A stretch of 14,519 nt of DNA, from UHGV virus genome UHGV-0203503; one strand, 5' to 3'. A program made the translations under genes and the position numbers. Shown here in pieces: positions 230 through 14,519 of the stretch; the first letter of the stretch is position 1; the number at the start of each line of letters is the position of its first letter. The notes under the pieces are model-generated. The model worked only from the letters and a program-made list of their open reading frames with translations. It had not been told where the DNA came from and made no database searches. Source of the stretch: a virus.

Positions 230-260
230 TTGACGTAGATTGAGTGGTGGTGCATAGTAT
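230..260 (+). promoter_or_regulatory. sigma70-like promoter P1 for the plus operon 292-2066
   Basis: -35 TTGACG 230-235, 17-nt spacer, -10 CATAGT 253-258 (or TAGTAT 255-260); ~30 nt leader to ATG 292. Carries an imperfect inverted repeat TTGACGTAGAT (230-240) / ATCTACATCAA (260-270). Confidence 0.4.
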
Positions 261-291
261 CTACATCAAGTGATGAGTGAGGAGAAATGAA

Positions 292-705
292 ATGGAAAAT
301 AAGCTGATTGGCAAGAATATCGTCGAAGTTAAAATTGCAGAAGATAAGCTGGCTATGCTTTTTGTTTGTGATAATGGCGAGGAACTTGTTGTTCGCGTTG
401 ATGCTGATTGCTGTTCGTATACATGGATTGAATCAGTTGAAATGCCTGCGCTAGGGTTTCCATTTACTATTATTGAGTGTGAGGATTTGGCAATGCCTGA
501 CTTGGGTGATATGCCAGGTTGTGATTACGTTCAATACTACGGAGCGAAAATCACAACCAACAAAGGTGACATGGTGATTGACTATCGCAATGATTCAAAC
601 GGATATTATGGCGGAGAAATCGTCTGGCCGGGTGAAGGTTTTTACGGCGGGGTGTTCGGACAAAACGAGTCCAACATGGACTGGAGAGATATTGAGGAAT
701 CGTAA
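292..705 (+). CDS. Hypothetical protein, 137 aa
   Basis: ORF-track frame 277-705 begins at GTG; first ATG at 292 with GGAG 281-284 at 7 nt spacing. No recognised motif. Confidence 0.5.
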   Translation: MENKLIGKNIVEVKIAEDKLAMLFVCDNGEELVVRVDADCCSYTWIESVEMPALGFPFTIIECEDLAMPDLGDMPGCDYVQYYGAKITTNKGDMVIDYRNDSNGYYGGEIVWPGEGFYGGVFGQNESNMDWRDIEES

Positions 706-707
706 TC

Positions 708-851
708 ATGGTAATAGTCAAATTCAAAGAAAACGGACGCTGCGGAGTGTTCAGCCTTGAGCAAATCAAAATCCGCCCGTGCGGTAAAGTGGTTGCGCCA
801 TTTGGTCTGGTGCAAATGCGTGAGTGCGAAACTGTTGAATATATTAAGTGA
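708..851 (+). CDS. Small hypothetical protein, 47 aa (below ORF-track cutoff)
   Basis: ATG 708 three nt after the upstream stop; GAGGAA 694-699 as RBS; fills the 706-856 gap between track ORFs; translation MVIVKFKENGRCGVFSLEQIKIRPCGKVVAPFGLVQMRECETVEYIK. Confidence 0.3.
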   Translation: MVIVKFKENGRCGVFSLEQIKIRPCGKVVAPFGLVQMRECETVEYIK

Positions 852-856
852 GGTTG

Positions 857-1150
857 ATGATGGAAGAATTTAAAGGCACGAGTGGAAAATGGGGGGTTGT
901 TGCTGGTGATGATAACGCACCTGATGTTATCTCTGATATTGGTGTTGAGGTTGCATTCACTCCAACATATAACGGTGATAAAGCAGAACAATGGCATAAC
1001 GCAAAATTAATCGCATCATCGCCAGAGTTGCTCTCAGCACTCCAGCAACTACTGGAAATCTACGACGACAACTCCGGCAAAGTCTGGACAACATCAAGCA
1101 AGCGTCGCGCTCTGGATAATGCGCGTGCAGCGGTTAACAAGGCGTTGTGA
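857..1150 (+). CDS. Hypothetical protein, ~97 aa
   Basis: Track ORF 848-1150 starts at GTG; in-frame ATGs at 857 and 860 follow GAGG 850-853; the upstream small ORF stop (849-851) overlaps. Confidence 0.45.
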   Translation: MMEEFKGTSGKWGVVAGDDNAPDVISDIGVEVAFTPTYNGDKAEQWHNAKLIASSPELLSALQQLLEIYDDNSGKVWTTSSKRRALDNARAAVNKAL

Positions 1151-1159
1151 GAAACAAAA

Positions 1160-1753
1160 ATGAAACTCATCGACCTGTTAGTTCAAGAATTACCTAAGCG
1201 TGGTGGGTGGCCTAATGGTGCAGTATGCGCAACACAAGATAAAGATGGAGAAGTTTACTTCTCTGAAGGCGAAACACCTGAATTTGGCTTGGTGGCCTGG
1301 CATGATGGAGACTGGTGCGGAAATGAGTTTCACACAATTACGGCCACCGATTACGACACTGCCATCATTACTCGCGCCCAGTACGAATCAGCACTCGCAG
1401 CATCGCAAAAGCCAGCATGGAACGGCGAAGGTCTGCCTCCAGTTGGGTGTGATTGTGAATGTCATGTCGATGAAGGAATAATTCATTGCGTTGTGGTTGG
1501 TTATGATTTTGATGGCAAAGCTGTTGTGATGCGCAATGTTCCAGTGCGCAAATACTTCTCAATTCAGGCTAACTCAGGGCGCATAAGACCACTACGCACA
1601 GAAAAAGAGCGCAAGCGTGATGAGGCAGCAGAAGCCATTGGCTTTTATATGCCGGAATTTATTACCGATACGCCAAATGAGTTTTACCACGCCAAAAAGA
1701 TTTACGACGCCATCGCAGCAGGCAAGATTCCCGGAGTGAAACTGGAGGATTAA
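1160..1753 (+). CDS. Hypothetical protein, 197 aa
   Basis: ATG 1160, 9 nt after the upstream stop; long ORF in operon context; no recognised motif. Confidence 0.5.
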   Translation: MKLIDLLVQELPKRGGWPNGAVCATQDKDGEVYFSEGETPEFGLVAWHDGDWCGNEFHTITATDYDTAIITRAQYESALAASQKPAWNGEGLPPVGCDCECHVDEGIIHCVVVGYDFDGKAVVMRNVPVRKYFSIQANSGRIRPLRTEKERKRDEAAEAIGFYMPEFITDTPNEFYHAKKIYDAIAAGKIPGVKLED

Positions 1754-1755
1754 TT

Positions 1756-1989
1756 ATGTTTCCTGAGAAAATAAATATTGCTATAACACACTGGCAGACC
1801 TCTGACGGCAATGTGTTTACTGACCAGTTCGCTGCAAAGATTCATCAGGCCGTTATTGATGGTGATGCGCGAATTTGCCTAGAATGTAATGGCACTGGAA
1901 TGGTTGACCCATATTGCGATGGGAGGACTGAGTTTCCATGCCAAGAGTGCACTGGTGGTTACCAATTTAAAAATGAAACGTGGAAATGA
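1756..1989 (+). CDS. Small Cys-rich (zinc-ribbon-like) protein, 77 aa
   Basis: GGAGG 1744-1748 seven nt before ATG 1756; Cys spacing ICLECNG...YCDG...FPCQECTGG (CxxC...C...CxxC) suggests a metal-binding ribbon. Confidence 0.5.
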   Translation: MFPEKINIAITHWQTSDGNVFTDQFAAKIHQAVIDGDARICLECNGTGMVDPYCDGRTEFPCQECTGGYQFKNETWK

Positions 1990-2066
1990 TTAAGACAATA
2001 TTCAGCGTCGTAGAGATATTGTGCTATGCGATAATAATATTCGTTCTGTGTATGCTCATAGGATAA
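1986..2066 (+). CDS. Possible 26-aa hydrophobic peptide, start overlapping the upstream stop (ATGA)
   Basis: ATG 1986-1988 overlaps TGA 1987-1989; translation MIKTIFSVVEILCYAIIIFVLCMLIG; ends 5 nt before terminator stem. Could be chance in AT-rich sequence. Confidence 0.2.
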   Translation: MIKTIFSVVEILCYAIIIFVLCMLIG

Positions 2067-2071
2067 AACCA

Positions 2072-2098
2072 AGCCCTCACTTAGAGGGCTTTTTGTTT
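2072..2098. terminator. Bidirectional intrinsic terminator between convergent transcription units
   Basis: Stem AGCCCTC (2072-2078) / GAGGGCT (2084-2090), 5-nt loop, TTTTTGTTT on the plus side; minus-side tail TTGGTTTTA. Overlaps the stop of the head-morphogenesis gene. Confidence 0.55.
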
Positions 2099-3027
2099 GC
2101 TGATTGCCATGCCTCTCGCTGCTTATCAAGTCTTTCCTGCGATGACTCAAGAATAACTGGCTTTCCATCCATTAGCAGTGTTGGTACTTGTGCGCAATGA
2201 CAATTCCTTCGGTTGGCAACTTCACTATAGAACGTGTCGATTTCTTCTGGCGTGTAAAACCTCCCGTGTCTCGCCGCGTGAGTATGGCGGGTCGTGCGCA
2301 TTAATGCCGATTGCCACAGCATTACCGTCTCAATACCTAACTCTTCGCGCGCTTCAATGACTTCTCTCCTGTTTGCCTGCCGCAGCGTTCCGGTGATTTC
2401 TGTTTGCGCCAACTGTTTTGCGTAACTGTGAGACACATCGATACGCTTAACGATGTCGGCTTCAACATCACGAGGATTAGCGCCTCGAGCAATGCCTTCC
2501 ATAATGACAGATGCCAGTTGCTGACGGGAATAATCACTCAATCCGCGCCAGTCTGAATATCCTTGCGTGTACGCTAGCTGGAGTCGATTCAGATAAGGCT
2601 CACTGTAGAGTATCGCGGCAATCGGCCTCTGCTCGGCATAAACCGGAGACAGGCTTGATAGCTCTGAGTTAGCCTTCTGCGTGCCAGCATGATGCGCATC
2701 ACCAATGAACACATTAGCCCACATCCTGCCGTGACCGAAGTCGTCACCTTCAAGCAGAATCTCGTCAATCAGCGCCTGCAACTCATCCATGAAAGTGGCA
2801 GCCCGCGCACTACTAAAATCGTAGAAATACAGACCGCTTGATTCTGCGTTGGTCTGGCTGCTCGGAATGGTGCGAAACAACTCAAGCGCACGAGTCCTGA
2901 GTTGTTTGTATTTGCGCGTTATCACCTTATCCATCTTCGACAGTCGCGTTGCAGCGCCTAACGGGTCGGTCAGGCTCTGCGATATGCGCGGTTGTGGCAA
3001 CCTTGCATTAAACCGGAGTATTTTCAT
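2077..3027 (-). CDS. Phage head morphogenesis / minor capsid protein (Mu F-like, SPP1 gp7 family), ~316 aa
   Basis: Lies immediately downstream of the portal gene on the same strand; C-terminal region ([18 protein letters not shown]...) resembles Mu-F-like proteins from memory. Start set at internal ATG 3027 (GGAAGA RBS) because the track ORF start 3111 lies inside the portal gene. Confidence 0.6.
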
Positions 3028-4420
3028 TTTCGTCTTCCGGCGGCGTGTCTTCGCGATAATTTTCGTCCAGCTCAATCGGCTCCATACCCACCATGCCGCG
3101 AGCCTCATCAACAGTCAGCAATGCAGATTGACCAGCATCAAAGAACGACTTGTTCGCAGTTGCGAGCTTAGACAGCAATTCGGCCTTATCCAGCTCTGAT
3201 GGAGCCAGCAGGTCATCCCACTTAACCTTGTAGCCGTTTGCCGGGGCTTTATCGACAATGCCGAACTGAATCATGCGCTCAACGAACATTGAGATGACGT
3301 AATCAACCCATGTTTCGCGGCGCTGTTTTGCGGTCATCGCCTCCTGCATCTTGTCCTCGTCGCTCGCAAGGCGTCCGGTTTGCTGGCCAAAAATAACGGT
3401 GAACGGAAGTGCCATTGATGCGGCGAACTGGTTGGCAGCAACTTCCCATGTTGGTTTCGGGTCGGCTGGTGTCACAGCGAGAACTTTTGCATCCGCGCCC
3501 ATTGTGAACATGGCTGCGTCAATCCCGGAGTTCAGCGCATCAATGTTCTCATTCATGATGTCGGTAAGCTCTTCAATATCGACACCCATTGACTGAGCTA
3601 GGCTTGCTGGCGTTACGTTATCCTTCGTGTAGTTAACCGCCAGTTGGCGGCTAGCATTCTTCAGGAAGCCCTCTGCGGAGCTACCGGAAACCTTAGCCAT
3701 GTCGATAAGGCTGTTGTAGCCAGCACGCAGCATCGGGATGCCACTGAACATACTACCGTCAAAACTACCCTCAGCCAGAATGATGATGCGGTCTGGGTGA
3801 ATCTGTACGGAACGCTCAGGCTTGCCATTGCTGTCGAAATCTTCCACGGCGCTTTCCTGGTATTCGTACATCTCAGGCATACCGTAGTCTTCGCTGGTTT
3901 CGTCGTTATTCCACGCGCTGACGCGGAGCTGCTCCTCCCATACAGGAATAAAGCGAACGATGGATTTATCTTTAATGCGGCGGGTTTTGGTGATGTCTAC
4001 AGGCTCACTCCACTGCTTGCCGTCGCGGATTTGCAGGATAACGGCGGAATAGCGGTTGATGGCGTTGCGCTTGTCAGCCTCCTTGATGAACGGGTAGGCG
4101 CGCTTCATCATGCCGTTGATGGACAACTCCCACGACGTTGAGTTCTTATCATCCTCTCCATCTTCAACCACTTCAGGGTATTTCTGCCAGCATTTATTAA
4201 TAATGCGGTTAATACCAGCGGCGGCAGCTGGGTGTCGTTCATAGGCATAACGGAACATCTCAGCGGTAATTTCCTGCGGGTAGCCCAGCTCCTTCCACAT
4301 GAACTCACGCTTCTGGTCAAGATTCTTCCCGCCAGCACAAAGCCTCTGCTGCTGAATTGCCCGGTTATTGTTCGCTACGCGGTCGCGTATATAGGCGTTT
4401 AATGCATCAATTTTTGACAT
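3008..4420 (-). CDS. Phage portal protein, 470 aa
   Basis: 470-aa ORF between terminase large subunit and Mu-F-like gene in the conserved order; acidic C-terminus. Assignment is by position and size, not by a recognised motif. Confidence 0.6.
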
Positions 4421-4431
4421 ATGTCACCAAT

Positions 4432-4458
4432 AAAAAATCCCATCACGTTGGATGGGAT
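4432..4458 (-). terminator. Intrinsic terminator (minus strand) between the small-gene cassette and the portal gene
   Basis: Stem ATCCCATC (4437-4444) / GATGGGAT (4451-4458), 6-nt loop, followed on the minus strand by TTTTT (complement of A-run 4432-4436). Sits 11 nt upstream of the portal ATG. Confidence 0.5.
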
Positions 4459-4493
4459 TATAACACGAGCTTGCAGTGGCTATGGTTGATGGC

Positions 4494-4724
4494 TTATTCT
4501 CTCCGTGATGGTATTGCAATCATCGGTTGCGTTTGTCTTTGCATGATAGATAATAGCTCGCCCTTGTAATGTTCTGTAATTTCATTTTGCCCTTTCATGT
4601 AAATCAAGATGGCCTCCTGTTCGGTGACAATTCCTTGCTTAAACAAGGTTATTACTTTCCTTGCCATAGTATCGCAAAGAGATAATTCTTCAAGGTATTG
4701 AATCGGCGTTTCGCAGTTATCCAT
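4494..4724 (-). CDS. Hypothetical protein, 76 aa
   Basis: ATG 4724-4722 overlaps upstream stop (TGATG); track ORF 4494-4727 begins at GTG. Confidence 0.4.
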   Translation of the reverse strand: MDNCETPIQYLEELSLCDTMARKVITLFKQGIVTEQEAILIYMKGQNEITEHYKGELLSIMQRQTQPMIAIPSRRE

Positions 4725-4909
4725 CACTCCACCTTTTCCAGTTTATCAATAACAATATCGAACCCTTGGGATTGGAATATGGCGGCATTCTCGTTCGCCA
4801 TAAATACTTCGAAAGCATGAACTGCGTTTGACGCAGCTATCACCATAGACATTTTTGCGGCAACTTCACCACCACCAAGCACTTCAGCATGAATAAAATA
4901 AACGCTCAT
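4724..4909 (-). CDS. Hypothetical protein, 61 aa
   Basis: ATG 4909-4907 overlaps upstream stop (TGATG); translationally coupled chain. Confidence 0.4.
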   Translation of the reverse strand: MSVYFIHAEVLGGGEVAAKMSMVIAASNAVHAFEVFMANENAAIFQSQGFDIVIDKLEKVE

Positions 4910-5097
4910 CACTCAATCTCCTCACCATTAACCCAGCGTTGCAGGACTTCGATTAGCTGCGCGGCTTGCTGTTTGTCGATGCCAATAGAGTTAACATCAT
5001 CGCCTTCACGGAATGAAGTAAGCATAATGATAGGGTAATCACCAAAACTATGACTAACTTGCAGTTCATAGCAATTTTTTGTTTCACCAATAATCAT
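4909..5097 (-). CDS. Hypothetical protein, 62 aa
   Basis: ATG 5097-5095 preceded by GAGG at 7 nt spacing, inside the repeated element TTGAGGTGATGTGATG. Confidence 0.4.
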   Translation of the reverse strand: MIIGETKNCYELQVSHSFGDYPIIMLTSFREGDDVNSIGIDKQQAAQLIEVLQRWVNGEEIE

Positions 5098-5152
5098 CAC
5101 ATCACCTCAACAAAGTTCACCATCAGTTACCACCAACAACTTCTGCCATAAT

Positions 5153-5356
5153 TTATTTCTGAACATGATTAATCCACCATGCGGCAATTGCTGAGAAAAT
5201 CCACAAGCCGATAACAAGCCTGAAAACCTGCCAATTCAGTATGTCATCAATACTTGGCGCCTCCCATCTAATCAGCCAGATAAGCGGGAAAGCAAGCGCC
5301 AGTGCAATGGTGTACTTAATACCAATAAGAAGAAAATCTCTTAGGAAGCCTCTCAT
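5153..5356 (-). CDS. Small membrane protein, 67 aa, two predicted transmembrane helices
   Basis: Hydrophobic stretches IKYTIALALAFPLIWLI and VFRLVIGLWIFSAIAAWWI; ATG 5356 preceded by the same GAGGTGATGTG element. Confidence 0.45.
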   Translation of the reverse strand: MRGFLRDFLLIGIKYTIALALAFPLIWLIRWEAPSIDDILNWQVFRLVIGLWIFSAIAAWWINHVQK

Positions 5357-5365
5357 CACATCACC

Positions 5366-5560
5366 TCAACCAATCGGAAACCACTTATCAATGACATCAT
5401 GGAATTTTTGCATAACCTTTGCCTGCCAAAATTCAAGCCACTCAAATAAATTTCTTGCACCAGAAAAGAAAACCCACAATAACCACACAGGAACAAAAAA
5501 TGGCAGTAAAGCAATCCTTCCGATCTTGCTTCTGTTGCTCATCCTGCTTATCTTAAGCAT
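5366..5560 (-). CDS. Small membrane protein, 64 aa, one predicted transmembrane helix
   Basis: Hydrophobic stretch IALLPFFVPVWLLWVFF; ATG 5560 directly after upstream stop, preceded by GAGGGTGATGTG. Confidence 0.45.
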   Translation of the reverse strand: MLKISRMSNRSKIGRIALLPFFVPVWLLWVFFSGARNLFEWLEFWQAKVMQKFHDVIDKWFPIG

Positions 5561-5564
5561 CACA

Positions 5565-5771
5565 TCACCCTCTCAAAAAATCATTCTTGCAGCAGATACC
5601 CTTGTACCCGCGCTTCTCCTGCAGATTAACGAAAACATCATCCAGAACGCGCAGCAGGAAATCCTCGTCAATATCATACCGACGGCAAATCACCTCATCA
5701 GGTACACCAGCCCGCGCCAGTGAATAAACCTGCTCTTTTTCCTCCTGTGTGAATCCTGCATAGCTGCGCAT
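5565..5771 (-). CDS. Hypothetical protein, 68 aa (first gene of the minus cassette)
   Basis: ATG 5771 with GGAG at 8 nt spacing; ~24 nt downstream of predicted promoter P2b. Confidence 0.45.
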   Translation of the reverse strand: MRSYAGFTQEEKEQVYSLARAGVPDEVICRRYDIDEDFLLRVLDDVFVNLQEKRGYKGICCKNDFLRG

Positions 5772-5801
5772 AGTGATATCTCCGATAAGCCTGATGTAGA
5801 T

Positions 5802-5830
5802 ATACTATGCGCTCGGTGTAGATTGGTCAA
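5802..5830 (-). promoter_or_regulatory. sigma70-like promoter P2b for the minus six-gene cassette
   Basis: On the minus strand: -35 TTGACC (complement of 5825-5830), 17-nt spacer, -10 TAGTAT (complement of 5802-5807), then ATCTACATCA as in P1. Confidence 0.4.
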
Positions 5831-5868
5831 GTGTGGCGATGAGGATTTATCGACATTAACAGTAAATG

Positions 5869-5897
5869 TTGACGTAGATATGTTGGTGACGTAGAAT
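5869..5897 (+). promoter_or_regulatory. Near-consensus sigma70 promoter P2 for the plus two-gene cassette
   Basis: -35 TTGACG 5869-5874, exactly 17 nt spacer, -10 TAGAAT 5892-5897; divergent from P2b. Confidence 0.5.
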
Positions 5898-5930
5898 CAT
5901 CTTATCGAAAAGAGATTAAGGAACAAGAGA

Positions 5931-6086
5931 ATGTTTGAGACTAAAAAAGAATGCGAAGCGTATATTGCCGAAACTTATGGTGCTGACTACGTTAAATTTG
6001 GCATCGTTACCGCCCAGAAAGTCGGCCCAACAATCGCCAAGATGCTTGGTATTAAAGAAGGTTACTACCCATCAAATGCCTACTAA
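5931..6086 (+). CDS. Small hypothetical protein, 51 aa (below ORF-track cutoff)
   Basis: ATG 5931 preceded by AAGGAA (5918-5923); translation MFETKKECEAYIAETYGADYVKFGIVTAQKVGPTIAKMLGIKEGYYPSNAY; alternative reading to the TTG-initiated 117-aa track ORF. Confidence 0.4.
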   Translation: MFETKKECEAYIAETYGADYVKFGIVTAQKVGPTIAKMLGIKEGYYPSNAY

Positions 6087-6090
6087 TTAC

Positions 6091-6288
6091 ATGCCGAGAT
6101 GCCTTCGTGAAATACCGAAGGCAAAAGTGAAGCCAAGAAATCAAGCAATAAAAGAGGCAAAGATTGAGGCTTTCAATATTGCCATTTCGATAATAAAAGA
6201 GAGATGCAGAGATGAAAAGTCTGAACGCGTTAAATCAAACATGTATGCAGCTGTGAGTGATATATCAAGATTGAGAGATGAGCTTTAA
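6091..6288 (+). CDS. Small hypothetical protein, 65 aa
   Basis: ATG 6091 in the frame of track ORF 5935-6288; basic, helix-like sequence (MPRCLREIPKAKVKPRNQAIKEAKIEAF...); RBS weak, start uncertain (an in-frame ATG at 6076 is also possible). Confidence 0.3.
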   Translation: MPRCLREIPKAKVKPRNQAIKEAKIEAFNIAISIIKERCRDEKSERVKSNMYAAVSDISRLRDEL

Positions 6289-6317
6289 GCCCTCATTTGA
6301 GGGCTTTATTTTTATCG
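6288..6317 (+). terminator. Intrinsic terminator of the plus cassette, lying 7 nt from the terL stop
   Basis: Stem AGCCCTC (6288-6294) / GAGGGCT (6299-6305), loop ATTT, followed by TTATTTTTAT on plus; no T-tract on the minus side. Confidence 0.55.
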
Positions 6318-7736
6318 CCTGCGTCGGATTAGCATTCCGCTTCCGCGCTGGACGATGTGGTCATTTAGTGCGTAACGAACGGCATCCCAGAAGTGGTTAA
6401 ATGCATCGACAATATCAGTCAGCACATTCCCCGTCAGCTTATCGACCTTGTAGCTGTACATCGTTGCTTCATTCTGCATTTCCTTGCATCGCTCGTGGAT
6501 GATGATGCTGTCACATCCGCGCAGCCACGTGACGCCATCCTCAACGCTTCCCGGCCATTTAGTGCACGGGTGAATATCGAATCCAGAGCGCTTGATGTGA
6601 CTGATAGTCTCAGGTCGAGCGCAGTCTGCATACCATCGCGCGCGCTTAGCCATAGGGAATGATTGCTCCATCGCAGCTGGCGTATCGGTAATCTCAAGGC
6701 CAACCTTGCCATACTCTCGATTAATATAAATGTTGCGCCGTCCATCTGGTAATTCTTCGATATAAACCTCAACCATCGCGGTAGGATCGGTGGAAAACCC
6801 GAAGTCCATCCCGAAGTATGGGCCATGCCATTCAGGTTTGACTTCAAAGTCATCAACGCGCCATTTGCCACCGAATACCTGCTCGTCGCTTCGCTTGTTA
6901 AAGGCTCCCATCCAAATCCAGCGGTAACGGTCGTAATCAGTTCGTTTCATTTGCTCCATGGCGGATGGCAGCGGTGTATCCCAGAACCACGGGTTGTCTG
7001 AATAGTTACATTCGATAATCAGAATTTCATCATTTTCGAATATTCCATCAACCATCTGTGAGTGATAAGGAGCAATCCAGTTTTTCCATGTCGGGTCTGT
7101 TTCCTTGTTGGGGTTAAATGAGCACCACAGCTCGGAATTGGCGGCGCGGATGGTAGGCACGAGAATGTCCCAGCTTGTCTGGCTGACGTTCTCCGCTTCC
7201 TCTACCCAACCGACGGTAATGCCAGCAAAGCCCTTAACGGTTGTCTGATTGCGATACAACCCCTTAAAGCGAAACTTTGCTTTGGTCTTCTTGTGTGTTA
7301 TCTCGTTGTTGATAACGCGAAACTCAGCTGACTCGCCTTTGCGGGCTATCTCATCAACAAGCTCCTGATAGCTTGAGTCTTCAATGGATTGCTGAATCTC
7401 ACGGAAGCAGGCAAAGCGGTCGGGTCGAAACCTTGCGCGCTCAGTAAGGATGGTGATAATTGTTCTCGTTTTCCCTGACCCACGCCCACCATAGACAAAC
7501 TTGAAACGTTTGGGGTATAGCAGACGTTCCAGCTTTGCCGGAATGAGGTGGTCGGCATGAGTGGTTGCATTGGTCACATCATCAACGCCAGTAGCGGTCA
7601 TCCTTAACCGCTTGATGACGTTTTTCTGCATGTCGCAGATACCAAAGATAGCTGATTCTGCGACATCTGTCATTGCATCATCAATCTGCGCTTCCAGCTT
7701 TTCTATTGCCAGCGCGGAGAGGCGTTTACGAGCCAT
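6312..7736 (-). CDS. terL: Phage terminase large subunit, ~474 aa
   Basis: Walker A VYGGRGSGKT, Walker B-like ITVGWVEEAE, nuclease-domain-like GMDFGFSTDP. Start set at ATG 7736 (GGAG RBS, 11-nt overlap with the terS stop) rather than track start 7805. Confidence 0.88.
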   Translation of the reverse strand: MARKRLSALAIEKLEAQIDDAMTDVAESAIFGICDMQKNVIKRLRMTATGVDDVTNATTHADHLIPAKLERLLYPKRFKFVYGGRGSGKTRTIITILTERARFRPDRFACFREIQQSIEDSSYQELVDEIARKGESAEFRVINNEITHKKTKAKFRFKGLYRNQTTVKGFAGITVGWVEEAENVSQTSWDILVPTIRAANSELWCSFNPNKETDPTWKNWIAPYHSQMVDGIFENDEILIIECNYSDNPWFWDTPLPSAMEQMKRTDYDRYRWIWMGAFNKRSDEQVFGGKWRVDDFEVKPEWHGPYFGMDFGFSTDPTAMVEVYIEELPDGRRNIYINREYGKVGLEITDTPAAMEQSFPMAKRARWYADCARPETISHIKRSGFDIHPCTKWPGSVEDGVTWLRGCDSIIIHERCKEMQNEATMYSYKVDKLTGNVLTDIVDAFNHFWDAVRYALNDHIVQRGSGMLIRRRR

Positions 7737-8172
7737 TCTGCTGCTCCAGCAATTTCTCCAGTCGTTCAAGGCGCGCGGCGAGTTCGGTAATTTCCTGAAT
7801 ATCAAGGCCAGACTTGATAATGTCTGCCATCATCTTTCCGATGTCGGCAGGAACAACGCCAGTGGATACACCCTTGATGATTGCGTCCATTTTTTGCACC
7901 GGGGTTCCGTCAGCAGGGAAGTCGAACTCCACAGGAGGAGCTACAGGCTTAGGAATTGGGTTGAGCCTCAGGAATATCTCTCGAAGCATACTGGTAGCCT
8001 GAGCGTCTTCGCATGTCATCGCCTTATTGATGTAATAAGTGACGAATTCAATCTCACTCATCGGTGTATTCGCAGCACGAAGCGCCTCAAGCAGCACAGT
8101 GCGATAGCTCTTTCCGCGCGGAGGTGGTTGATTTGTAGATGAAAATTTGTGTTTTGGATTTGGGTTTGCCAT
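7726..8172 (-). CDS. terS: Phage terminase small subunit (probable), 148 aa
   Basis: Immediately upstream of and overlapping terL; basic N-terminus and helical C-terminus; start at ATG 8172 (track ORF extends to 8247 but first ATG is at codon 26). Confidence 0.6.
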   Translation of the reverse strand: MANPNPKHKFSSTNQPPPRGKSYRTVLLEALRAANTPMSEIEFVTYYINKAMTCEDAQATSMLREIFLRLNPIPKPVAPPVEFDFPADGTPVQKMDAIIKGVSTGVVPADIGKMMADIIKSGLDIQEITELAARLERLEKLLEQQNGS

Positions 8173-8229
8173 GTCTATTGTGTTCTTTGAGTAACTCACA
8201 TACGTTAATTTTAACACATAGACGTAGAT

Positions 8230-8255
8230 AAAAAAGAACCCGCACAAGGCGGGTT
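8230..8255 (-). terminator. Intrinsic terminator (minus strand) ending the small-gene operon before terS
   Basis: Stem AACCCGC (8237-8243) / GCGGGTT (8249-8255), 5-nt loop, followed on minus by CTTTTTT (complement of 8230-8236). Confidence 0.5.
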
Positions 8256-8299
8256 AAGGTTGGGTGATGATATGAGTGAAAGTAGTGGTGGTTATGTGC

Positions 8300-8473
8300 T
8301 TATTGTACACCATCATTATCACGCTTGCCAGCATGGCACCATGCGTTTTCATCACGAGTCTGCACATGAACGATTTCAAGCGCATCAGGGAATGTCTTTG
8401 CTATCTTCGCGATAAAATCGTCCAATTCGTGCTGTTTGGCGAGTTGCCAGACTTTCTGTTTAGTGGTTTGCAT
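8300..8473 (-). CDS. Hypothetical protein, 57 aa
   Basis: ATG 8473 with GAGGG 9 nt upstream; part of track ORF 8300-8539; last gene before the terminator. Confidence 0.3.
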   Translation of the reverse strand: MQTTKQKVWQLAKQHELDDFIAKIAKTFPDALEIVHVQTRDENAWCHAGKRDNDGVQ

Positions 8474-8639
8474 TTGCAAAAGCCCTCGTAGAGCACATGT
8501 ATTTAATCTCATGCACACCATTGTCTGGCACAACCTCAATGCGATTGCTGAGCTGCACCATCATGTAATGGCATGTCATCATACCGTCCCAGTATCGTTT
8601 CCACATAAATTCCATTGCGGCGTTGATATCGTCAAACAT
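8460..8639 (-). CDS. Hypothetical protein, 59 aa (below ORF-track cutoff)
   Basis: ATG 8639-8637 overlaps the end of the upstream gene (ATGTTTGA); translation MFDDINAAMEFMWKRYWDGMMTCHYMMVQLSNRIEVVPDNGVHEIKYMCSTRAFANANH. Confidence 0.3.
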   Translation of the reverse strand: MFDDINAAMEFMWKRYWDGMMTCHYMMVQLSNRIEVVPDNGVHEIKYMCSTRAFANANH

Positions 8640-8952
8640 AATGCTGCCACCCCCTTTTAACCCATGCTACGCGATTTTTGTTGGTGTGAATCAGTCCTCT
8701 TGCGCTTTCTGTTAAATATGGTAGTTCTCTGTTGTTAAACGGATAATCACCATTAAGTCCAGCTTTAATGAATTGCTGCCGCATTAACTTTCTTGCCTGC
8801 TCCCTTTCCTTTGGTGTTGACCCCATCACCTTTAAATGCAAGGTTAAGGAAACACAAATACCGCAATTACGACTAAATGGTTTACCTTCTGGCGCTCCAG
8901 CATCAATCCAGTCGGAGTATACTTCATAAAAATCAGCTAATTGATTAAACAT
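8632..8952 (-). CDS. Hypothetical protein, 106 aa
   Basis: ATG 8952 with AGGAG 9 nt upstream; track ORF 8632-8970. Confidence 0.5.
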   Translation of the reverse strand: MFNQLADFYEVYSDWIDAGAPEGKPFSRNCGICVSLTLHLKVMGSTPKEREQARKLMRQQFIKAGLNGDYPFNNRELPYLTESARGLIHTNKNRVAWVKRGWQHYV

Positions 8953-9052
8953 AATGCACAACTCCTGCAATAGCCGCTACCAGTGCAAGCACATAAACAG
9001 CAAGGAAAATTTTAGCGCCAGTGGTGTAGTTGCGTCGTTGGTACTTGGTCAT
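8945..9052 (-). CDS. Possible 35-aa single-helix membrane peptide
   Basis: ATG 9052-9050 overlaps upstream TGA (ATGA); translation MTKYQRRNYTTGAKIFLAVYVLALVAAIAGVVHYV; its stop overlaps the next gene start. Confidence 0.2.
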   Translation of the reverse strand: MTKYQRRNYTTGAKIFLAVYVLALVAAIAGVVHYV

Positions 9053-9246
9053 TCGTCGTTCTCCCGCCCTAGATATGAGAGTGATGTGATTGCCACTGCC
9101 GTGAACCTGTCACTGCCAATCAAACTCTTCAGCACCTCGACATCTTCTTGCGATTTAATTCTGAACGTCAACTGAGCTATGCCAGCCACTGATGACGCGC
9201 CTCCTGCAGATATTGCATTGTAGTGATAAATATATCTATTGCTCAT
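9049..9246 (-). CDS. Hypothetical protein, 65 aa
   Basis: ATG 9246 with GGAG 8 nt upstream; track ORF 9049-9252. Confidence 0.4.
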   Translation of the reverse strand: MSNRYIYHYNAISAGGASSVAGIAQLTFRIKSQEDVEVLKSLIGSDRFTAVAITSLSYLGRENDE

Positions 9247-9309
9247 CCACACATCTCCACTAAAGCGTGCGCCACATAGAGCGCACTGATAATTAACATG
9301 AACGGGTAG

Positions 9310-9699
9310 CTATTCACTTTTAGCCAGGCTTTCGAATTGCTGTGCTATGGTGTCAAACTGAACCATCTTGACAACATCGTCGAACATGACAAATTCTCCT
9401 TCATGGTCTTCACTCATGTCAGCACCGTAATCCTCCCGCTTCGGTGCTGCTGCGATAATTTCACCCTCGTATCCGATTCCAATGCTCCTCGATTCACCTA
9501 TGTAGACTACCGGACATCCGACGAGATAATCTGAGTGCGAAGCAAGCTTACCATTCAAAATTTTACCGTCATTCATCCTTACATAAACATCCGACATCAA
9601 CGGAAGCGCCATTATTTGCTCATAGGTTAGCTTTACTGGCTTGGCGGAGTTCATTACCGGCATGTACTTAGGCGGCTTGCGCCCGTTCACCCTGCTCAT
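9310..9699 (-). CDS. Hypothetical protein, 129 aa
   Basis: ATG 9699 preceded by AGGAGG (4 nt spacing); acidic C-terminal half. Confidence 0.55.
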   Translation of the reverse strand: MSRVNGRKPPKYMPVMNSAKPVKLTYEQIMALPLMSDVYVRMNDGKILNGKLASHSDYLVGCPVVYIGESRSIGIGYEGEIIAAAPKREDYGADMSEDHEGEFVMFDDVVKMVQFDTIAQQFESLAKSE

Positions 9700-9841
9700 T
9701 CGACCTCCTGCTGTGGTGCTTCTGCGAGCATTGTCACAAGAGCCATGAAATCAGCATACTTAACATATAAACCAGAAATGTCATCGCCATCTGTATTAAG
9801 CTACGCGTCGTTGCAGTTTGCTGCGTATGTTTTAACTTCAC

Positions 9842-10075
9842 TCATACCCTAACCCCCATAATTTCTTCGTAATAGCCATCTTCTTCAAACTCAATCTTTG
9901 CGATTTTGAGCGCATCCTCATCTGTGATATCAATCGCTTTGAATTTGCATTTTGACAGCACTATGCAGCCTGACAGGATTAACCACTTATTCCACAAGCG
10001 CACTCGCCTGATTGTCCTGCTCGAATACATCTTGTTCTGCACAAACCAGAACTCGTATGTTTTTACTTTCGCCAT
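9842..10075 (-). CDS. Hypothetical protein, 77 aa
   Basis: ATG 10075; GGTGA upstream; track ORF. Confidence 0.45.
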   Translation of the reverse strand: MAKVKTYEFWFVQNKMYSSRTIRRVRLWNKWLILSGCIVLSKCKFKAIDITDEDALKIAKIEFEEDGYYEEIMGVRV

Positions 10076-10111
10076 ATCATCACCATTAAAAATAAGAGTG
10101 CTGAATCGTGT

Positions 10112-10294
10112 TCAAAATACGATAATCAGCTCATCCATCACTCTGTGCTTACCTTCACCATTAAACACGCGCACAACTCGATTTACGCGGATAGATTCCA
10201 TTGCATTGCGTGCCTGCTTGCTCATAAAGTTCTGCGCGCCAACGTGACCGAGTTCCGGTTCCAGCTTCTCGCGACGATAGATAGTCTTTGCCAT
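10112..10294 (-). CDS. Hypothetical protein, 60 aa
   Basis: ATG 10294 with AGGAG at 6 nt spacing. Confidence 0.45.
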   Translation of the reverse strand: MAKTIYRREKLEPELGHVGAQNFMSKQARNAMESIRVNRVVRVFNGEGKHRVMDELIIVF

Positions 10295-10297
10295 TTG

Positions 10298-10393
10298 TTA
10301 CTCCTTATACCCTGATTTAGAAACTGCCACTGCGATAATGATGGATGCCACGATAACCAGACTGGCGACAAGCTCGAATGTTGCGCCTGTCAT
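10298..10393 (-). CDS. Possible 30-aa single-helix membrane peptide
   Basis: ATG 10393-10391 overlaps upstream TGA; translation MTGATFELVASLVIVASIIIAVAVSKSGYKE; stop overlaps the RBS of the next gene. Confidence 0.2.
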   Translation of the reverse strand: MTGATFELVASLVIVASIIIAVAVSKSGYKE

Positions 10394-10575
10394 TTCTTCG
10401 AAGCCTTATATTCATCTTCTGTCAACGCGTATGCCTCGCAAATCATGTTTGCCGCATCAATAATGACATTTGAGCGCATGTCAGCAGGCAGGCTTGGAAC
10501 CTGTTGTGACAATGCCATGCATATATCGCTGAATAACTTCATCTGGTCGATGCTGTACGTGCTTTCTTCTTTCAT
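10390..10575 (-). CDS. Hypothetical protein, 61 aa (first gene of the minus operon)
   Basis: ATG 10575 with GAGGGTGA upstream; ~24 nt downstream of predicted promoter P4. Confidence 0.45.
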   Translation of the reverse strand: MKEESTYSIDQMKLFSDICMALSQQVPSLPADMRSNVIIDAANMICEAYALTEDEYKASKK

Positions 10576-10605
10576 CTCTTCACCCTCGTTTGTTTCGATT
10601 AGTTC

Positions 10606-10634
10606 AATCTACATCAGTTGTGATTCTACGTCAA
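10606..10634 (-). promoter_or_regulatory. sigma70-like promoter P4 for the minus operon 10575 to 8300
   Basis: Minus strand reads TTGACG (complement of 10629-10634), 17-nt spacer, TAGATT (complement of 10606-11); same architecture as P2. Confidence 0.45.
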
Positions 10635-10640
10635 CAGCAA

Positions 10641-11025
10641 GTTACCCAAATAACGATAATTCCGGTAACCAGGAGCATAAAAACCGGTAACTGTTATAAA
10701 TCAATTACTTACTATTCATTCATGCCATTTTACCATCAAAAAAGTTACCGGAGTTACCGGTCGCCCGGTAACTTGAAACCCGCATGCATCAAGGCTCTCA
10801 GGAGAGTTACCGGATTTACCGGGTAACTCCTTACATATATAAAAAGTGTTGAATTTCTTATTATGTATATGATTTATAAGCGTTTTATTCAATTTTGATA
10901 CAAATTCTCATTTTTGAAATTTTTATAAGCTCATATGCAAAAAATCCGGTAACTACGGTAACCCTATAGTTATCAATAGCTTACGTCGGTAACCGCTCGG
11001 TAAAAACCCGGTAACTCCGGTAACT
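10641..11025. repeat. Iteron-like array: about 14 copies of CCGGTAAC / GTTACCGG flanking an AT-rich core (10828-10944)
   Basis: Exact CCGGTAAC at 10662, 10684, 10765, 10946, 11008, 11017; exact GTTACCGG at 10744, 10753, 10806; one-mismatch copies at 10815, 10955, 10986, 10997; palindrome GTTACCGGtcgcCCGGTAAC 10753-10772; IHF-like TATCAAtagcTTA 10971-10983. Confidence 0.7.
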
Positions 11026-11065
11026 ACTGTAAAGATGCGTAAGTAAGCTCATTATCTTGCTGTCG

Positions 11066-11094
11066 TTGACGTGTACATAATATTCATGTATATT
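11066..11094 (+). promoter_or_regulatory. Near-consensus sigma70 promoter P5 for the plus operon 11120-13784
   Basis: -35 TTGACG 11066-11071, 17-nt spacer, -10 TATATT 11089-11094; ~25 nt leader to AGGAGG and ATG 11120. Confidence 0.5.
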
Positions 11095-11119
11095 TTTTAC
11101 ATGACAAAAGGAGGGCTGA

Positions 11120-11398
11120 ATGTACCCAGATGGCACTAAACTAATGTTTGCATACGAGCTGTTATCTTCAATGAAATCTGGTGAACTGGTTGGTATTCAC
11201 TTCGAGAATGAATACTCAAGCGAAATCATCAAAGGAGAAAAGGAAAATTGCCGCTCCGTGGTTATTGATGAAAAGTACCGAATGACGCACAACATGTTCA
11301 GGTCTTACTGCACCAGAATAGCCAATGAACAAGGCATGGTTATAAAAACAAAAACCAGTGAAAGCAAAAAATTCATGTATATCTGGAGAGTCCTGTGA
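11120..11398 (+). CDS. Hypothetical protein, 92 aa
   Basis: AGGAGG 11109-11114 five nt before ATG 11120; stop overlaps the next start. Confidence 0.5.
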   Translation: MYPDGTKLMFAYELLSSMKSGELVGIHFENEYSSEIIKGEKENCRSVVIDEKYRMTHNMFRSYCTRIANEQGMVIKTKTSESKKFMYIWRVL

Positions 11399-13026
11399 TG
11401 ACTGATTCAAAGAAAATCATTGAACTAAAGGAATCTCTGAAGCCAACAGGTAAGCCTGATTCTGGAAATCCACTTGATGAAATTGACGTGCAAGAATTCC
11501 GAGAAGAATACAAAATCCCGCCTGGCTCTCTTGGTGAATTCATGTGCGAGATAGAGAATCATTTTGAAAATCGCGAAGAAGGAGAGGTTTACAGATTGCC
11601 GGGTGCTATCGCTCTTGCTCAAGTGATGGCTGGAAGATACATAATTGGCCCAAGCGCAAAAAACAAGTGTGCCACGGGGACATTTATTGTTGGTCGCTCT
11701 GGCGCAGGTAAGGGTGCTCCATCTGATTTTGTTAAGGCTTACTCAGAGAATCTTGGAATCACTCCACGCGTATCAAAAAGCACAGTAACTTCATTGCGAC
11801 AAATCAAAGAGCGCCTTATTGAGGCTGATGGTTTCTTGCTTTATATCGCAGATGACTGCCCTGAACATCTTCAGGCTTGGTCAGATACGCGATCACCTCT
11901 TGGTGAAACGGCATCATGGTTCAGGACGTCCATTAGTGGCGACTGGTTCCCTGAGTCTCCTGTTGTTACATTGTTTCAGGAGAAGCTGGCCAGCGCTCAA
12001 AACCCGAAGTTAATACTCTCTGCAGCGCAGGCTCAGGGGTGGATGATACCTCGCATCGGCGAATCTGATGGCGCTATAGATTATCGTCGGCTTGCAAAAA
12101 TGAACCATGACATTGGGAGAAGATTAAATCACGCCATGCAATGTTATGACCTGTGCATTAACGAGAAGGGAATACAGAACGTAAGGTTCATTCCGTTCAT
12201 AACCGTGACCCCAGAGCAGGGAATTGCAACAGTACGGAGATGGGAAAAGGATGGTGGCATGGGGAGATCTCTTTTCATTAAAGGTCATGAACACATGCCG
12301 GAACTTAAGAATACTCCTGACATGGAAATCAATAAAACAATAATAAACGAATGGAAACCAAGAATTCCAGGTGGTTTTTTTAATGTGGAATATGCCAATG
12401 ATGGTGTTTCGAAATACTATGAGATGTTGCGCAGGCGCATAGACAAGTCAAGCAACATTCCAGGTGTAATTGGTAGCGTCGGCCCTCGCTCTGCTCAGAT
12501 GGTTATTGAGCTTGCTACTCTTTGTGCATTTGCTGATTTATCATCGCGCAATGGCATGACTCCGCAGGTAAAGGAATGCCATATTGAATGGGCATATGCA
12601 ACCGTAATGAACAGCATGTACGACCTGCGTGATTATCTGGAGGGAGAAGCAGAGTTTGATGGCCTTGAAAACACTGAGTGGGACAACATTGTTATGAAGG
12701 TTAAAAAATGCATTGAATCAAAGGCTTTCGCTGAAAAGCCTTATATTTCAGTTGTCAAAAACAAACTTTGTCGCGACAGAATCAGTAAGATAATTTCCGC
12801 TGCCGATTCAAACTCAATTCAGGTTACGCCGGATAAATTTACTTACGAGGTCATCATTGCGATATCTGAAAACAGGCATTCACCAATAGAACTCGACCCT
12901 GAGAACCCATCAAACATCCGGCTTTCTGGTGGCGGTTCATGGTCTGGATTGCGCATGAATGCATCAGTCAGGAATATCCTGTCATCAGCAATGAAGCGAA
13001 TGAGATTTATGAGGAACTTGAAATGA
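11398..13026 (+). CDS. Large hypothetical protein, 542 aa, with a glycine-rich loop GRSGAGKG and a hhhhDD motif (FLLYIADD); function unknown
   Basis: Longest ORF in window; ATG 11398 overlaps upstream TGA; GGAG 11384-11387. The glycine-rich loop is not a canonical Walker A (K followed by G, not S/T), so no NTPase call is made. Confidence 0.6.
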   Translation: MTDSKKIIELKESLKPTGKPDSGNPLDEIDVQEFREEYKIPPGSLGEFMCEIENHFENREEGEVYRLPGAIALAQVMAGRYIIGPSAKNKCATGTFIVGRSGAGKGAPSDFVKAYSENLGITPRVSKSTVTSLRQIKERLIEADGFLLYIADDCPEHLQAWSDTRSPLGETASWFRTSISGDWFPESPVVTLFQEKLASAQNPKLILSAAQAQGWMIPRIGESDGAIDYRRLAKMNHDIGRRLNHAMQCYDLCINEKGIQNVRFIPFITVTPEQGIATVRRWEKDGGMGRSLFIKGHEHMPELKNTPDMEINKTIINEWKPRIPGGFFNVEYANDGVSKYYEMLRRRIDKSSNIPGVIGSVGPRSAQMVIELATLCAFADLSSRNGMTPQVKECHIEWAYATVMNSMYDLRDYLEGEAEFDGLENTEWDNIVMKVKKCIESKAFAEKPYISVVKNKLCRDRISKIISAADSNSIQVTPDKFTYEVIIAISENRHSPIELDPENPSNIRLSGGGSWSGLRMNASVRNILSSAMKRMRFMRNLK

Positions 13027-13214
13027 GAACAATATCAGGTGAACTTTGTCGCTCAGAAGGTTCATGGCATTTCAGGCCGCATGGTTATTCGACGTGGTTT
13101 TTCTGGAGCGGCATTAACAAAGTATGGATTCGCTCTAATTACCACGTTCTTGATAATTATTGGCACAGATTTTGTGTTGGTTATGTTTATATTTCAAAAT
13201 TGATGATTAAGTGA
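13023..13214 (+). CDS. Small aromatic-rich hypothetical protein, 63 aa
   Basis: ATG 13023-13025 overlaps stop of the 542-aa gene (ATGA); Trp/Tyr/Phe-rich (STWFFWSGINKVWIRSNYHVLDNYWHRF). Confidence 0.35.
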   Translation: MRTISGELCRSEGSWHFRPHGYSTWFFWSGINKVWIRSNYHVLDNYWHRFCVGYVYISKLMIK

Positions 13215-13224
13215 GGGCAAGAAA

Positions 13225-13479
13225 ATGGATGTGAAAGATAAAGTTTTATACGTGATGAGAAAGAGGAAATCCATTGAAAAGACGCTTGGGATTTGTCGAA
13301 AGTTCTCCGTTGCTACGTGGAGTTTACGTCTATCGATGGCGAATGAATTTCCTGATGATGAATGGACAGCGGCAAAGTTACGGAAGGTTCTGATTTCTCT
13401 TTGTAAGGATGGTCTTGTGTCAAAGGATTTAAATAACAGTCGCATCGGTAATTCGGTTTGGATTCTGGAGGAAAACTGA
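13225..13479 (+). CDS. Hypothetical protein, 84 aa, possibly a small winged-helix DNA-binding protein
   Basis: GAGGG 13213-13217 seven nt before ATG 13225; basic N-terminus and helix-turn-like segment; the DNA-binding call is a weak impression. Confidence 0.4.
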   Translation: MDVKDKVLYVMRKRKSIEKTLGICRKFSVATWSLRLSMANEFPDDEWTAAKLRKVLISLCKDGLVSKDLNNSRIGNSVWILEEN

Positions 13480-13784
13480 TGGCTAACCTACAGCTTGCCG
13501 TCAAAGGCGAATACTTCGATGCCATGATTCGTGGAGAGAAAACGGAAGAGTATCGCCTTTTTAATGACTACTGGAAGAGGCGACTTATTAACTTTAAAGA
13601 TAGCGGACAGATTGGAAGGAAGTACGAACGGTTAATTATCACAAAAGGATATCCAAAGAAGGACGATAAATCCAGGCGGATTGACATCCCATATGATGGA
13701 TGGACTGTTAAAACAATCACGCATCCTCACTTCGGTCCTGATCCAGTGAAAGTGTTCGCAATAAAAGTTAACATCAAAGCGTAA
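13479..13784 (+). CDS. ASCH-domain protein, 101 aa
   Basis: Contains the ASCH signature GxKxxExR (IRGEKTEEYR) near the N-terminus; GGAGG 13467-13471 seven nt before ATG 13479, which overlaps the upstream stop; track ORF begins earlier at TTG 13458. Confidence 0.6.
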   Translation: MANLQLAVKGEYFDAMIRGEKTEEYRLFNDYWKRRLINFKDSGQIGRKYERLIITKGYPKKDDKSRRIDIPYDGWTVKTITHPHFGPDPVKVFAIKVNIKA

Positions 13785-13788
13785 CAAA

Positions 13789-13808
13789 AACCCTCCAGAT
13801 GGAGGGTT
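13789..13808. terminator. Bidirectional hairpin terminator between convergent genes
   Basis: Stem AACCCTCC (13789-13796) / GGAGGGTT (13801-13808), loop AGAT; minus-strand transcript is followed by a U-rich tract (UUUGUU), the plus side by a weaker tail. Confidence 0.5.
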
Positions 13809-13812
13809 TACT

Positions 13813-14481: not shown

Positions 14482-14519
14482 GTTCAGGAATCCACCAAGC
14501 GCCTCCAGTGCTTCTGGAA

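Follow-up and report, generated by a model that had tools for sequence, protein, structure and literature searches.

We have analysed a stretch of viral DNA, UHGV virus genome UHGV-0203503, whose full length of 14,519 nucleotides (nt) we call the window, and within it three hairpins of similar stem sequence, termed H1, H2 and H3. Each lies where a block of genes read on the plus strand meets an operon read on the minus strand. By megablast the window is placed with the Skatevirus-like small siphophages. The top match is Escherichia phage vB_EcoS_swi2 (Swiduovirus), with 90.8% identity over 70% coverage, and the next-ranked matches are C1 and DS8 (Deseoctovirus), SeSz-2 (Skatevirus), Akira, and Segz_1 and LPSTLL (Segzyvirus). 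The group appears to be virulent. An earlier note on this DNA had drawn attention to three hairpins sharing a CCCTC/GAGGG stem core at boundaries between transcription modules, and had suggested that reuse of one hairpin marks junctions of recombination, or else reflects a preferred terminator design. The positions given there hold to within 1-2 nt for all three hairpins, each of which lies between convergent open reading frames (ORFs). From their sequence and setting they are very probably ordinary Rho-independent terminators at the places where plus-strand cassettes meet minus-strand operons, with stems that resemble each other through a common design.

The plus-strand ORF blocks (277-2066, 5931-6288 and 11120-13784) are interspersed among minus-strand operons, and a sigma-70-like promoter match lies ahead of each, at 230, 5869 and 11066. 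H1 is situated between the end of the first cassette at 2066 and the head-morphogenesis gene at 2077, part of a minus-strand operon for head morphogenesis and portal (2077..4420) that converges on it. H2 is situated between an ORF ending at 6288 and the gene for the terminase large subunit (TerL), the stop codon of which is 5 nt away from the hairpin. H3 is situated between an ORF ending at 13784 and the primase gene. The remaining features are collected in Table 1. The cassette ORFs gave no Pfam matches, nor did the primase fragment from 13813 onward. The gene content of the first cassette differs among relatives, as do the 3' genes of the replication-region operon.

Table 1. Features of the window, numbered from its first nucleotide
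Feature	Position	Strand	Description and basis
Plus-strand cassette 1	230..2066	+	promoter-like site 230-258, six small ORFs (277-2066), H1 at end
H1 hairpin	2071..2091	both	AAGCCCTC-ACTTA-GAGGGCTT; bidirectional terminator-type
Head-morphogenesis gene, Mu-F-like (Phage_Mu_F)	2077-3027	-	Pfam and annotation of relatives
Portal gene	3008-4420	-	Pfam and annotation of relatives
Extra terminator-like hairpin	4436..4459	-	AATCCCATC/GATGGGATT, tail TTTTATTGGT; just upstream of portal start
Plus-strand cassette 2	5853..6310	+	promoter-like site 5869-5897, ORFs 5931-6086 and 6076-6288, putative terminator H2
H2 hairpin	6287..6306	+	AAGCCCTC-ATTT-GAGGGCTT; closes small plus-strand cassette
Terminase large subunit (TerL) gene	6312-7736	-	Pfam Terminase_3 and Terminase_3C
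Extra terminator-like hairpin	8237..8255	-	AACCCGC/GCGGGTT, tail CTTTTTTATC; upstream of ORF 7726-8172 (-) preceding TerL
Plus-strand replication-region operon	11066..13784	+	promoter-like site 11066-11094, ORFs 11120-13784, H3 at end
H3 hairpin	13788..13809	both	AAACCCTCC-AGAT-GGAGGGTTT; bidirectional terminator-type
DNA primase gene, 3' part	13813-14519	-	annotation in relatives; converges on H3

Structure, conservation and design of the hairpins

The three stems are perfectly paired over 8-9 bp, each with 5 G-C pairs, and are closed by loops of 4-5 nt. The calculated folding free energy (dG) of H1 is -15.3 kcal/mol on the plus strand and -15.0 kcal/mol on the minus strand (z about -3.2), that of H2 is -16.7 kcal/mol (z -5.2), and the values for H3 are -17.1 and -18.3 kcal/mol (z about -4.7). 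Across both strands, with the hairpins taken as RNA, dG ranges from -14 to -18 kcal/mol and the z score from -3.2 to -5.2, and not one of 200 shuffled sequences folded equally well. The distance from stop codon to stem is 0-6 nt at all three. At H1 the stop codon of the head-morphogenesis gene (TGA, 2077-2079, minus strand) is within the hairpin itself, which overlaps the last five codons of the coding sequence together with the stop.

H1 has the tails TTTGTTTGCT on the plus strand and GGTTTTATCC on the minus strand, and the U-rich tracts directly 3' of its stem are UUUUUGUUU and UUGGUUUUAU respectively. The plus-strand tail of H2 is TATTTTTATC, with the U-rich tract UUUAUUUUUAU. H3 has a strong U tract on the minus strand, GGAGGGUUUUUGUU (UUUUUGUU). 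A terminator scan flagged both strands of H1 but only the plus strand of H2. It missed H3, where the maximal stem swallows three T's; when the stem is cut back to CCCTCC/GGAGGG the minus-strand tail is TTTTTGTT. The hairpins have what is expected of Rho-independent terminators, namely a stable G+C-rich stem-loop in the usual size range of about 5-14 bp for the stem and 3-8 nt for the loop, a 3' U tract, a position following a stop codon and conservation of pairing. Convergent genes with a 5' A tract and a 3' T tract, as in bidirectional terminators, are found at H1 and H3, and in part at H2.

Two other functions were considered for these stems. Cleavage sites for RNase III were ruled out, the stems being just 8-9 bp, and a Shine-Dalgarno role for the GGAGG in the 3' arm was ruled out, since neither strand has a start codon at a suitable distance. 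An Rfam scan of the window gave no family at threshold, Rfam having no entry for hairpins of this type, and we found nothing on terminators in the literature on the phage group (Skatevirus, Swiduovirus, Deseoctovirus, Vi II-E1).

We compared the sites with those of three complete relatives (swi2, C1 and SeSz-2; loci L001, L002 and L003), four regional loci and 41 IMG/VR loci found via TerL, extracting from each the sequence beside the conserved anchor genes. Each site retains its own hairpin in about 40 relatives. In the close clade the stem and loop of H1 are invariant, because the coding sequence for head morphogenesis ends inside the hairpin (...AAG CCC TCT AAG TGA). In the distant clade H1 becomes AAGCCGCC-ATCA-GGCGGCTT, with two compensatory pairs and an altered C-terminus of the protein.

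H2 has a constant stem in the close clade, closed by nine different loops (ATTT, AATT, AACT, GAAT, AAAT, GATT, ATCT, TATT and AGAT). One locus (L022) has the compensated stem AAGCCCGC/GCGGGCTT and SeSz-2 a half-changed intermediate, while in the distant clade the stems are GCCCC(G), GACCCC or GCCCTC. Among the 23 distinct aligned sequences of this TerL-3' site, three of the six pairs have changed on both sides, with counts of UA 11 / CG 10 / GC 1, CG 15 / GC 8 and CG 21 / AU 2. The first of these falls on the pair responsible for the 'CCCTC' of the stem, and therefore it is the pairing that is preserved and not the sequence. H2 is missing in C1, DS8 and the loci L011 and L042, along with the whole of its cassette; loss together with 5853-6310 is expected of a terminator that serves the plus-strand cassette. 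The stem of H3 never varies (AAAAACCCTCC-N4-GGAGGGTTT in both clades, with variable loops, in about 30 relatives), and so is uninformative on whether pairing or sequence is conserved.

Some observations concern the sequence immediately around H1 and H3. A 26-codon ORF directly 5' of H1 (1987-2066, plus strand) encodes the hydrophobic peptide MIKTIFSVVEILCYAIIIFVLCMLIG; it falls inside the homology shared with most relatives, which starts at 1974, and is without annotation in swi2. In Segz_1 (L006, 215-999), and also in L027, there is an extra minus-strand gene (338-889 in L006) between H1 and the head-morphogenesis gene, and a match to the 13 nt following H1 (window 2089-2101) is found at either end of the Segz_1 insertion. 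Upstream of H3, unrelated ORFs in L024-L046 share one TAA stop, located 6 nt ahead of the stem (window 13779-13809).

The similarity of the stems is closest for H1 and H2. As the earlier note stated, both contain AAGCCCTCA...GAGGGCTTT, with an identical 8-bp stem plus the first base of the loop. Beyond this the flanks are unrelated apart from their richness in T. The pattern AAGCCCTC-N3-6-GAGGGCTT occurs twice in the window and in none of 200 dinucleotide-preserving shuffles, and CCCTC-N3-8-GAGGG occurs three times against a mean of 0.03 in such shuffles. Shuffled patterns almost never match, and the likeness is therefore not due to chance in random sequence. Such a null is unsuitable for terminators, as identical cores at non-orthologous sites are common among terminator-like hairpins.

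This can be seen in the complete relatives, where pairs of hairpins with identical cores at non-orthologous sites number 7/78, 1/55 and 6/55. Each genome has 11-13 terminator-like hairpins of several stem types, only 2-4 of them CCCTC...GAGGG. Nearly all conform to an A tract followed by a (G/T/-)CCC(C/T/G) stem, and in 30 of 35 the 5' arm has a CCC run after the A tract. In swi2 there is such a hairpin at every convergent junction. Stems of GCCCC/GGGGC (AAAGCCCC/GGGGCTTT) recur at unrelated convergent junctions, with up to 4 copies per genome. The sequence common to H1 and H2 is also generic outside the group. At least 120 unrelated contigs of IMG/VR contain the exact pattern AAGCCCTC-N3-6-GAGGGCTTT, and so do at least 120 genomes of bacteria, among them Bacteroidota, Bacillota, Proteobacteria and Actinomycetota. 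Among the matches listed, 36% of copies lie in stop-free stretches of at least 100 codons, compared with 90% of background bases. Copies are mostly outside long ORFs, the pattern expected of intergenic terminators. The suggestion of a preferred terminator design is supported by the A-tract and CCC stems of the relatives, by the wide occurrence of the H1/H2 sequence and by covariation of the T-A pair with C-G and G-C.

The structures, positions, conservation, covariation and generic sequence of the hairpins are shown by these data; that H1, H2 and H3 terminate transcription, efficiently or not in a given direction, is what we infer from them. Host RNA polymerase would release the transcript once the nascent RNA had formed the G+C-rich hairpin of 8-9 bp with a U tract behind it. 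Since H1 and H3 have an A tract before the stem and a T tract after it, both would stop transcripts arriving from either direction; the U tract of H2 would serve the plus-strand cassette only, making it effectively unidirectional. The effect would be to keep transcription of the plus-strand cassettes from running antisense into the essential minus-strand operons, and vice versa. The likeness of the stems would follow from a tiny design space, consisting of an A tract, an optional G, a CCC run and one or two more G/C or T. The same design appears to be used for nearly all terminators of the phage group and in many unrelated genomes.

Several observations weigh against this account, or at least against its simplest form. 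On the minus strand H2 is without a T/U tract (tail AAAGCTC; UUAAAGCUC) and hence is not a canonical bidirectional terminator, and TerL transcripts probably read through it. The plus-strand U tract of H3 is weaker and interrupted (UUUACUUUA). Together with its A tract, H3 (ATAACAAAAACCCTCC-N4-GGAGGGTTT) forms an invariant island of ~26 nt in a distant clade (L024-L046) where neither flank, the primase 3' end or the gene upstream, is alignable, and this invariance of sequence exceeds what the structure requires. Lastly, the CCCTC...GAGGG hairpins of swi2, C1 and SeSz-2 are confined to the segment matching the window, with none in the other ~33 kb. In swi2 the CCCTC type makes up 4/5 hairpins of the matching segment against 0/8 terminator-like hairpins elsewhere, and the other terminators of the three genomes, which belong to the regions for tail, head and recombination, nearly always have stems of GCCCC/GGGGC or CCCGC type. 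Pure convergence within the design space does not predict such regional clustering of CCCTC stems. The invariant H3 and the clustering are compatible with minor local homogenisation or with recombination at the patches, either of which we think has only a slim likelihood.

Mosaic junctions and other origins of the likeness

If the hairpins were places of exchange, the edges of homology should be informative. Compared with C1 and DS8, the unit 5853-6310 (promoter, two ORFs and H2) is absent with its edge at 6311, and in these phages and in L011 and L042 TerL adjoins a minus-strand promoter region. Compared with Segz_1 and LPSTLL the cargo differs, and homology restarts where H2 begins (6287/6288). 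For the H3 site the restart is at 13774-13782 in 5/7 relatives. At least six unrelated cargo sequences adjoin the hairpin at H2 and at least eight at H3, and their stop codons are separated from the stem by 0-6 nt. On the H1 side most homology blocks begin ~100 nt upstream, at 1974.

These edges could be taken to mean that the hairpins with their A and T tracts act as recombination linkers. Short patches of homology would then support crossovers between co-infecting relatives, with cargo swapped at a fixed 3' boundary, as in cassettes of the PeSL elements of T4-type phages, for which there is a precedent (PMC2839356, PMC4122927). The crossovers might possibly be made by the phage's own exonuclease VIII and Erf/RecT-type recombinase, and relatives do encode exonuclease VIII and a recombinase or Erf. 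The sharp edges at H2 and H3, the variety of cargo adjoining them and the invariant H3 island with its diverged flanks all speak for such a role. We nevertheless regard it as unlikely. A total of 647 breakpoints was counted over 43 non-redundant relatives, and hairpin-free boundaries are breakpoints as recurrent as the hairpins or more so: there are 34 at 7710-7739 (in 34/43 relatives), 19 at 5550-5579 and 15 at 10290-10319, against 15+8 in the bins at H2, 11 at H3 and fewer than 6 at H1. The hairpins were rejected as special junctions, for breakpoints are enriched there relative to random positions, but not relative to other gene boundaries. The hairpins are found at mosaic edges because they lie at the ends of genes and operons, and in this genome almost all boundaries of small genes are mosaic. 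Moreover, the conserved patch is merely 20-26 bp, the homology at H1 mostly begins well upstream, and the compensatory changes of stems at the same site mean that identity is not what is preserved. Selection against recombinants that break a terminator or an essential neighbour would give equally sharp edges.

Exchange between the sites was sought directly. For every relative, 400 nt from the cassette side of each hairpin were compared by BLAST with 48 loci, which span ~10 kb either side of TerL except for the three complete genomes among them. In these loci no cassette relocated from one hairpin site to another was found. The 139 apparent off-site matches were all trivial, arising from an absent anchor gene (L048, L005, L016 and L045), a longer cassette or a shared promoter motif of 40-70 nt. 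Nothing shows the hairpin itself to be the site of crossover, and the role as a recombination linker is unproven. Of what the earlier note proposed about recombination, the co-location with mosaic edges holds at H2 and H3; the idea that the hairpins mark junctions fares worse, given the hairpin-free breakpoints and the lack of relocation. The note had also held that its recombination proposal would fall if other boundaries had many unrelated GC-rich hairpins with no association with mosaic junctions. The outcome of this check is mixed: other boundaries do have GC-rich hairpins that are different, if related (GCCCC type), but an association with mosaic junctions exists.

A related possibility is that the hairpins and the conserved promoter regions delimit 'expression slots' in these small siphophages, in which the patch of ~20-26 nt is the preferred crossover for swapping unrelated accessory genes among co-infecting relatives in the manner of PeSLs. 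The strongest candidates for such a patch could be the invariant H3 island and the H2 stem. We find this improbable.

We consider it very doubtful that H1, H2, H3 and the TCCCTC variant of the hairpin at 4436 are copies of one ancestor, spread or homogenised by gene conversion within a segment of ~12 kb. Such common descent would account for the identity of H1 and H2 over the 8-bp stem and first loop base, and for the confinement of CCCTC...GAGGG to the segment that matches the window; sites also flip between CCCGC and CCCTC types (L022, at the H2 and 8237 sites). Yet there is no likeness outside the stems, and hundreds of unrelated genomes have each acquired an identical hairpin independently. 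Nor do the sites stay alike in the distant clade, where H1 is GCCGCC and H2 mostly GCCCC(G) or GACCCC, stems that hint that H1 and H2 reached GCCCTC independently. As for the regional clustering, it was noticed post hoc and involves few hairpins. Resemblance by chance and without function, conceivable for elements as short as about 20 nt, is next to impossible given that shuffles reproduce the patterns 0/200 times and fold at far higher energies, and that each site is conserved with covariation in about 40 relatives.

There is thus a high probability that the similarity of H1, H2 and H3 does not result from duplication or from recombination between the sites, and we return to the interpretation as ordinary terminators of common design. 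Similar terminator stems in a phage genome are no evidence by themselves of either process.

Further elements of the window

The window has two more terminator-like hairpins, at 4436-4459 and 8237-8255. They are not listed in the earlier note, and they lie inside strings of co-directional genes with T tails on the minus strand. The first is a TCCCTC variant in swi2 and several other relatives, and the second a AACCCTCC/GAGGGTT variant in L022. Directly after the hairpin at 8237-8255 the minus strand has TGTTAAAAT, an extended -10-like element ahead of ORF 7726-8172 (window 8170-8236). From its sequence the region may combine a terminator with a promoter following it, serving the packaging genes. 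With these two the value of the analysis is mostly one of annotation, giving a map of transcription units with three convergent terminator junctions and two internal terminators.

Within the cassette closed by H2 there is another perfect 8-bp hairpin, TGCCTTCG-TGAAATAC-CGAAGGCA (6100-6123, plus strand), 14 nt past the stop of ORF 5931-6086 and early within ORF 6076-6288, which shares nucleotides 6076-6086 with the first ORF. This hairpin is kept in swi2 (33904-33925) and SeSz-2 (15720-15743), and might affect translation of the second ORF.

A promoter-associated motif, TTGACGTAGAT, has with its close variants 13 matches at up to 2 mismatches where 3.6 are expected, located at 230-269, 5791-5896, 8219-8229 and 10607-10634. 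The copies are paired in divergent promoter regions, overlapping the -35 and -10 hexamers (for example TTGACGTAGATatgttgGTGACGTAGAAT, 5869-5896), and gave short cross-site BLAST matches between relatives. The motif could represent a promoter specific to the family, or else the operator of a regulator made by the phage.

A 450-nt non-coding gap separates divergent minus- and plus-strand operons immediately 5' of the replication genes. It contains nine exact repeats of CCGGTAAC in both orientations (10662-11024), where 0.11 would be expected, and a palindrome with a 9-bp stem (10752-10773). The arrangement is kept in swi2 (38403-38424), and the region looks like an iteron-type replication origin.

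Comparison with known systems

PeSLs (promoter-early stem-loop cassettes) are composites of a sigma-70 promoter and a stem-loop, tens of nt in length, that occur in about 50 copies per genome of T4-type phages, and recombination between non-allelic copies has been demonstrated, including the formation of mini-circles (PMC2839356, PMC4122927). Like them, H1-H3 are stem-loops with G and C runs of the kind that serve as terminators, bordering variable small genes at the edges of indels and replacements. Unlike them, they are not fused to promoters, and only two are identical over 20 nt. No promoter-like site adjoins H1-H3, the promoters being at the opposite ends of the cassettes. In place of ~50 near-identical copies there are 11-13 hairpins per genome, with 2-4 of the CCCTC...GAGGG type, and no cassette-side sequence is found beside another site in the 48 loci.

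The fit is closer to morons, which are units of promoter, gene and terminator inserted between conserved phage genes (the concept of Juhala and Hendrix; PMC3594210). The cassette at 5853-6310 comprises a sigma-70-like promoter, one or two small ORFs and H2, and as a block is present or absent between TerL and its minus-strand neighbours; C1, DS8, L011 and L042 are without exactly this unit. Its cargo is flanked by a consensus-level promoter match (5869-5897, TTGACG-17-TAGAAT) and the predicted terminator H2. As with morons, the plus-strand cassettes are oriented against the surrounding operons. Judged by its sequence organisation, the unit fits the definition and may be called moron-like (PMC3594210). 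There are differences. Morons were defined in temperate phages whereas this group looks virulent, and here one promoter and terminator frame several unrelated cargos, which is more a fixed expression slot than a single insertion. Accessory genes in slots between a conserved promoter and a conserved terminator would aid the finding of cargo genes and of sites tolerant of insertion for engineering.

Interspersed repeats of REP or MITE type can be set aside, for the identity of H1 and H2 is limited to AAGCCCTCA / GAGGGCTTT and does not extend into the flanks, which are unrelated. In the modular theory of Susskind and Botstein, boundary or 'linker' sequences were reportedly proposed at the module junctions of lambdoid phages. 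The hairpins resemble these in being short conserved sequences where exchangeable modules join, but here there is no evidence that the conserved patch is a crossover site, and boundaries free of hairpins are equally mosaic.

It is with the canonical Rho-independent terminators of enterobacteria that the agreement is best. These include the trp attenuator and trpA type (AGCCCGC...GCGGGCUUUUUUUU) and the bidirectional terminators found between convergent genes. They have the same G+C-rich stem of 7-9 bp with a C run in the 5' arm and a G run in the 3' arm, the same short loop and the same 3' U tract. In the bidirectional examples a 5' A tract likewise supplies the U tract of the opposite strand, and the site is right after the stop codons of convergent genes. 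The differences are non-essential: H2 has no second U tract, H1 overlaps the end of a coding sequence, and the likeness is known here from sequence. We conclude that the hairpins are real, were correctly described and are ordinary, being further instances of a well-known kind of element.

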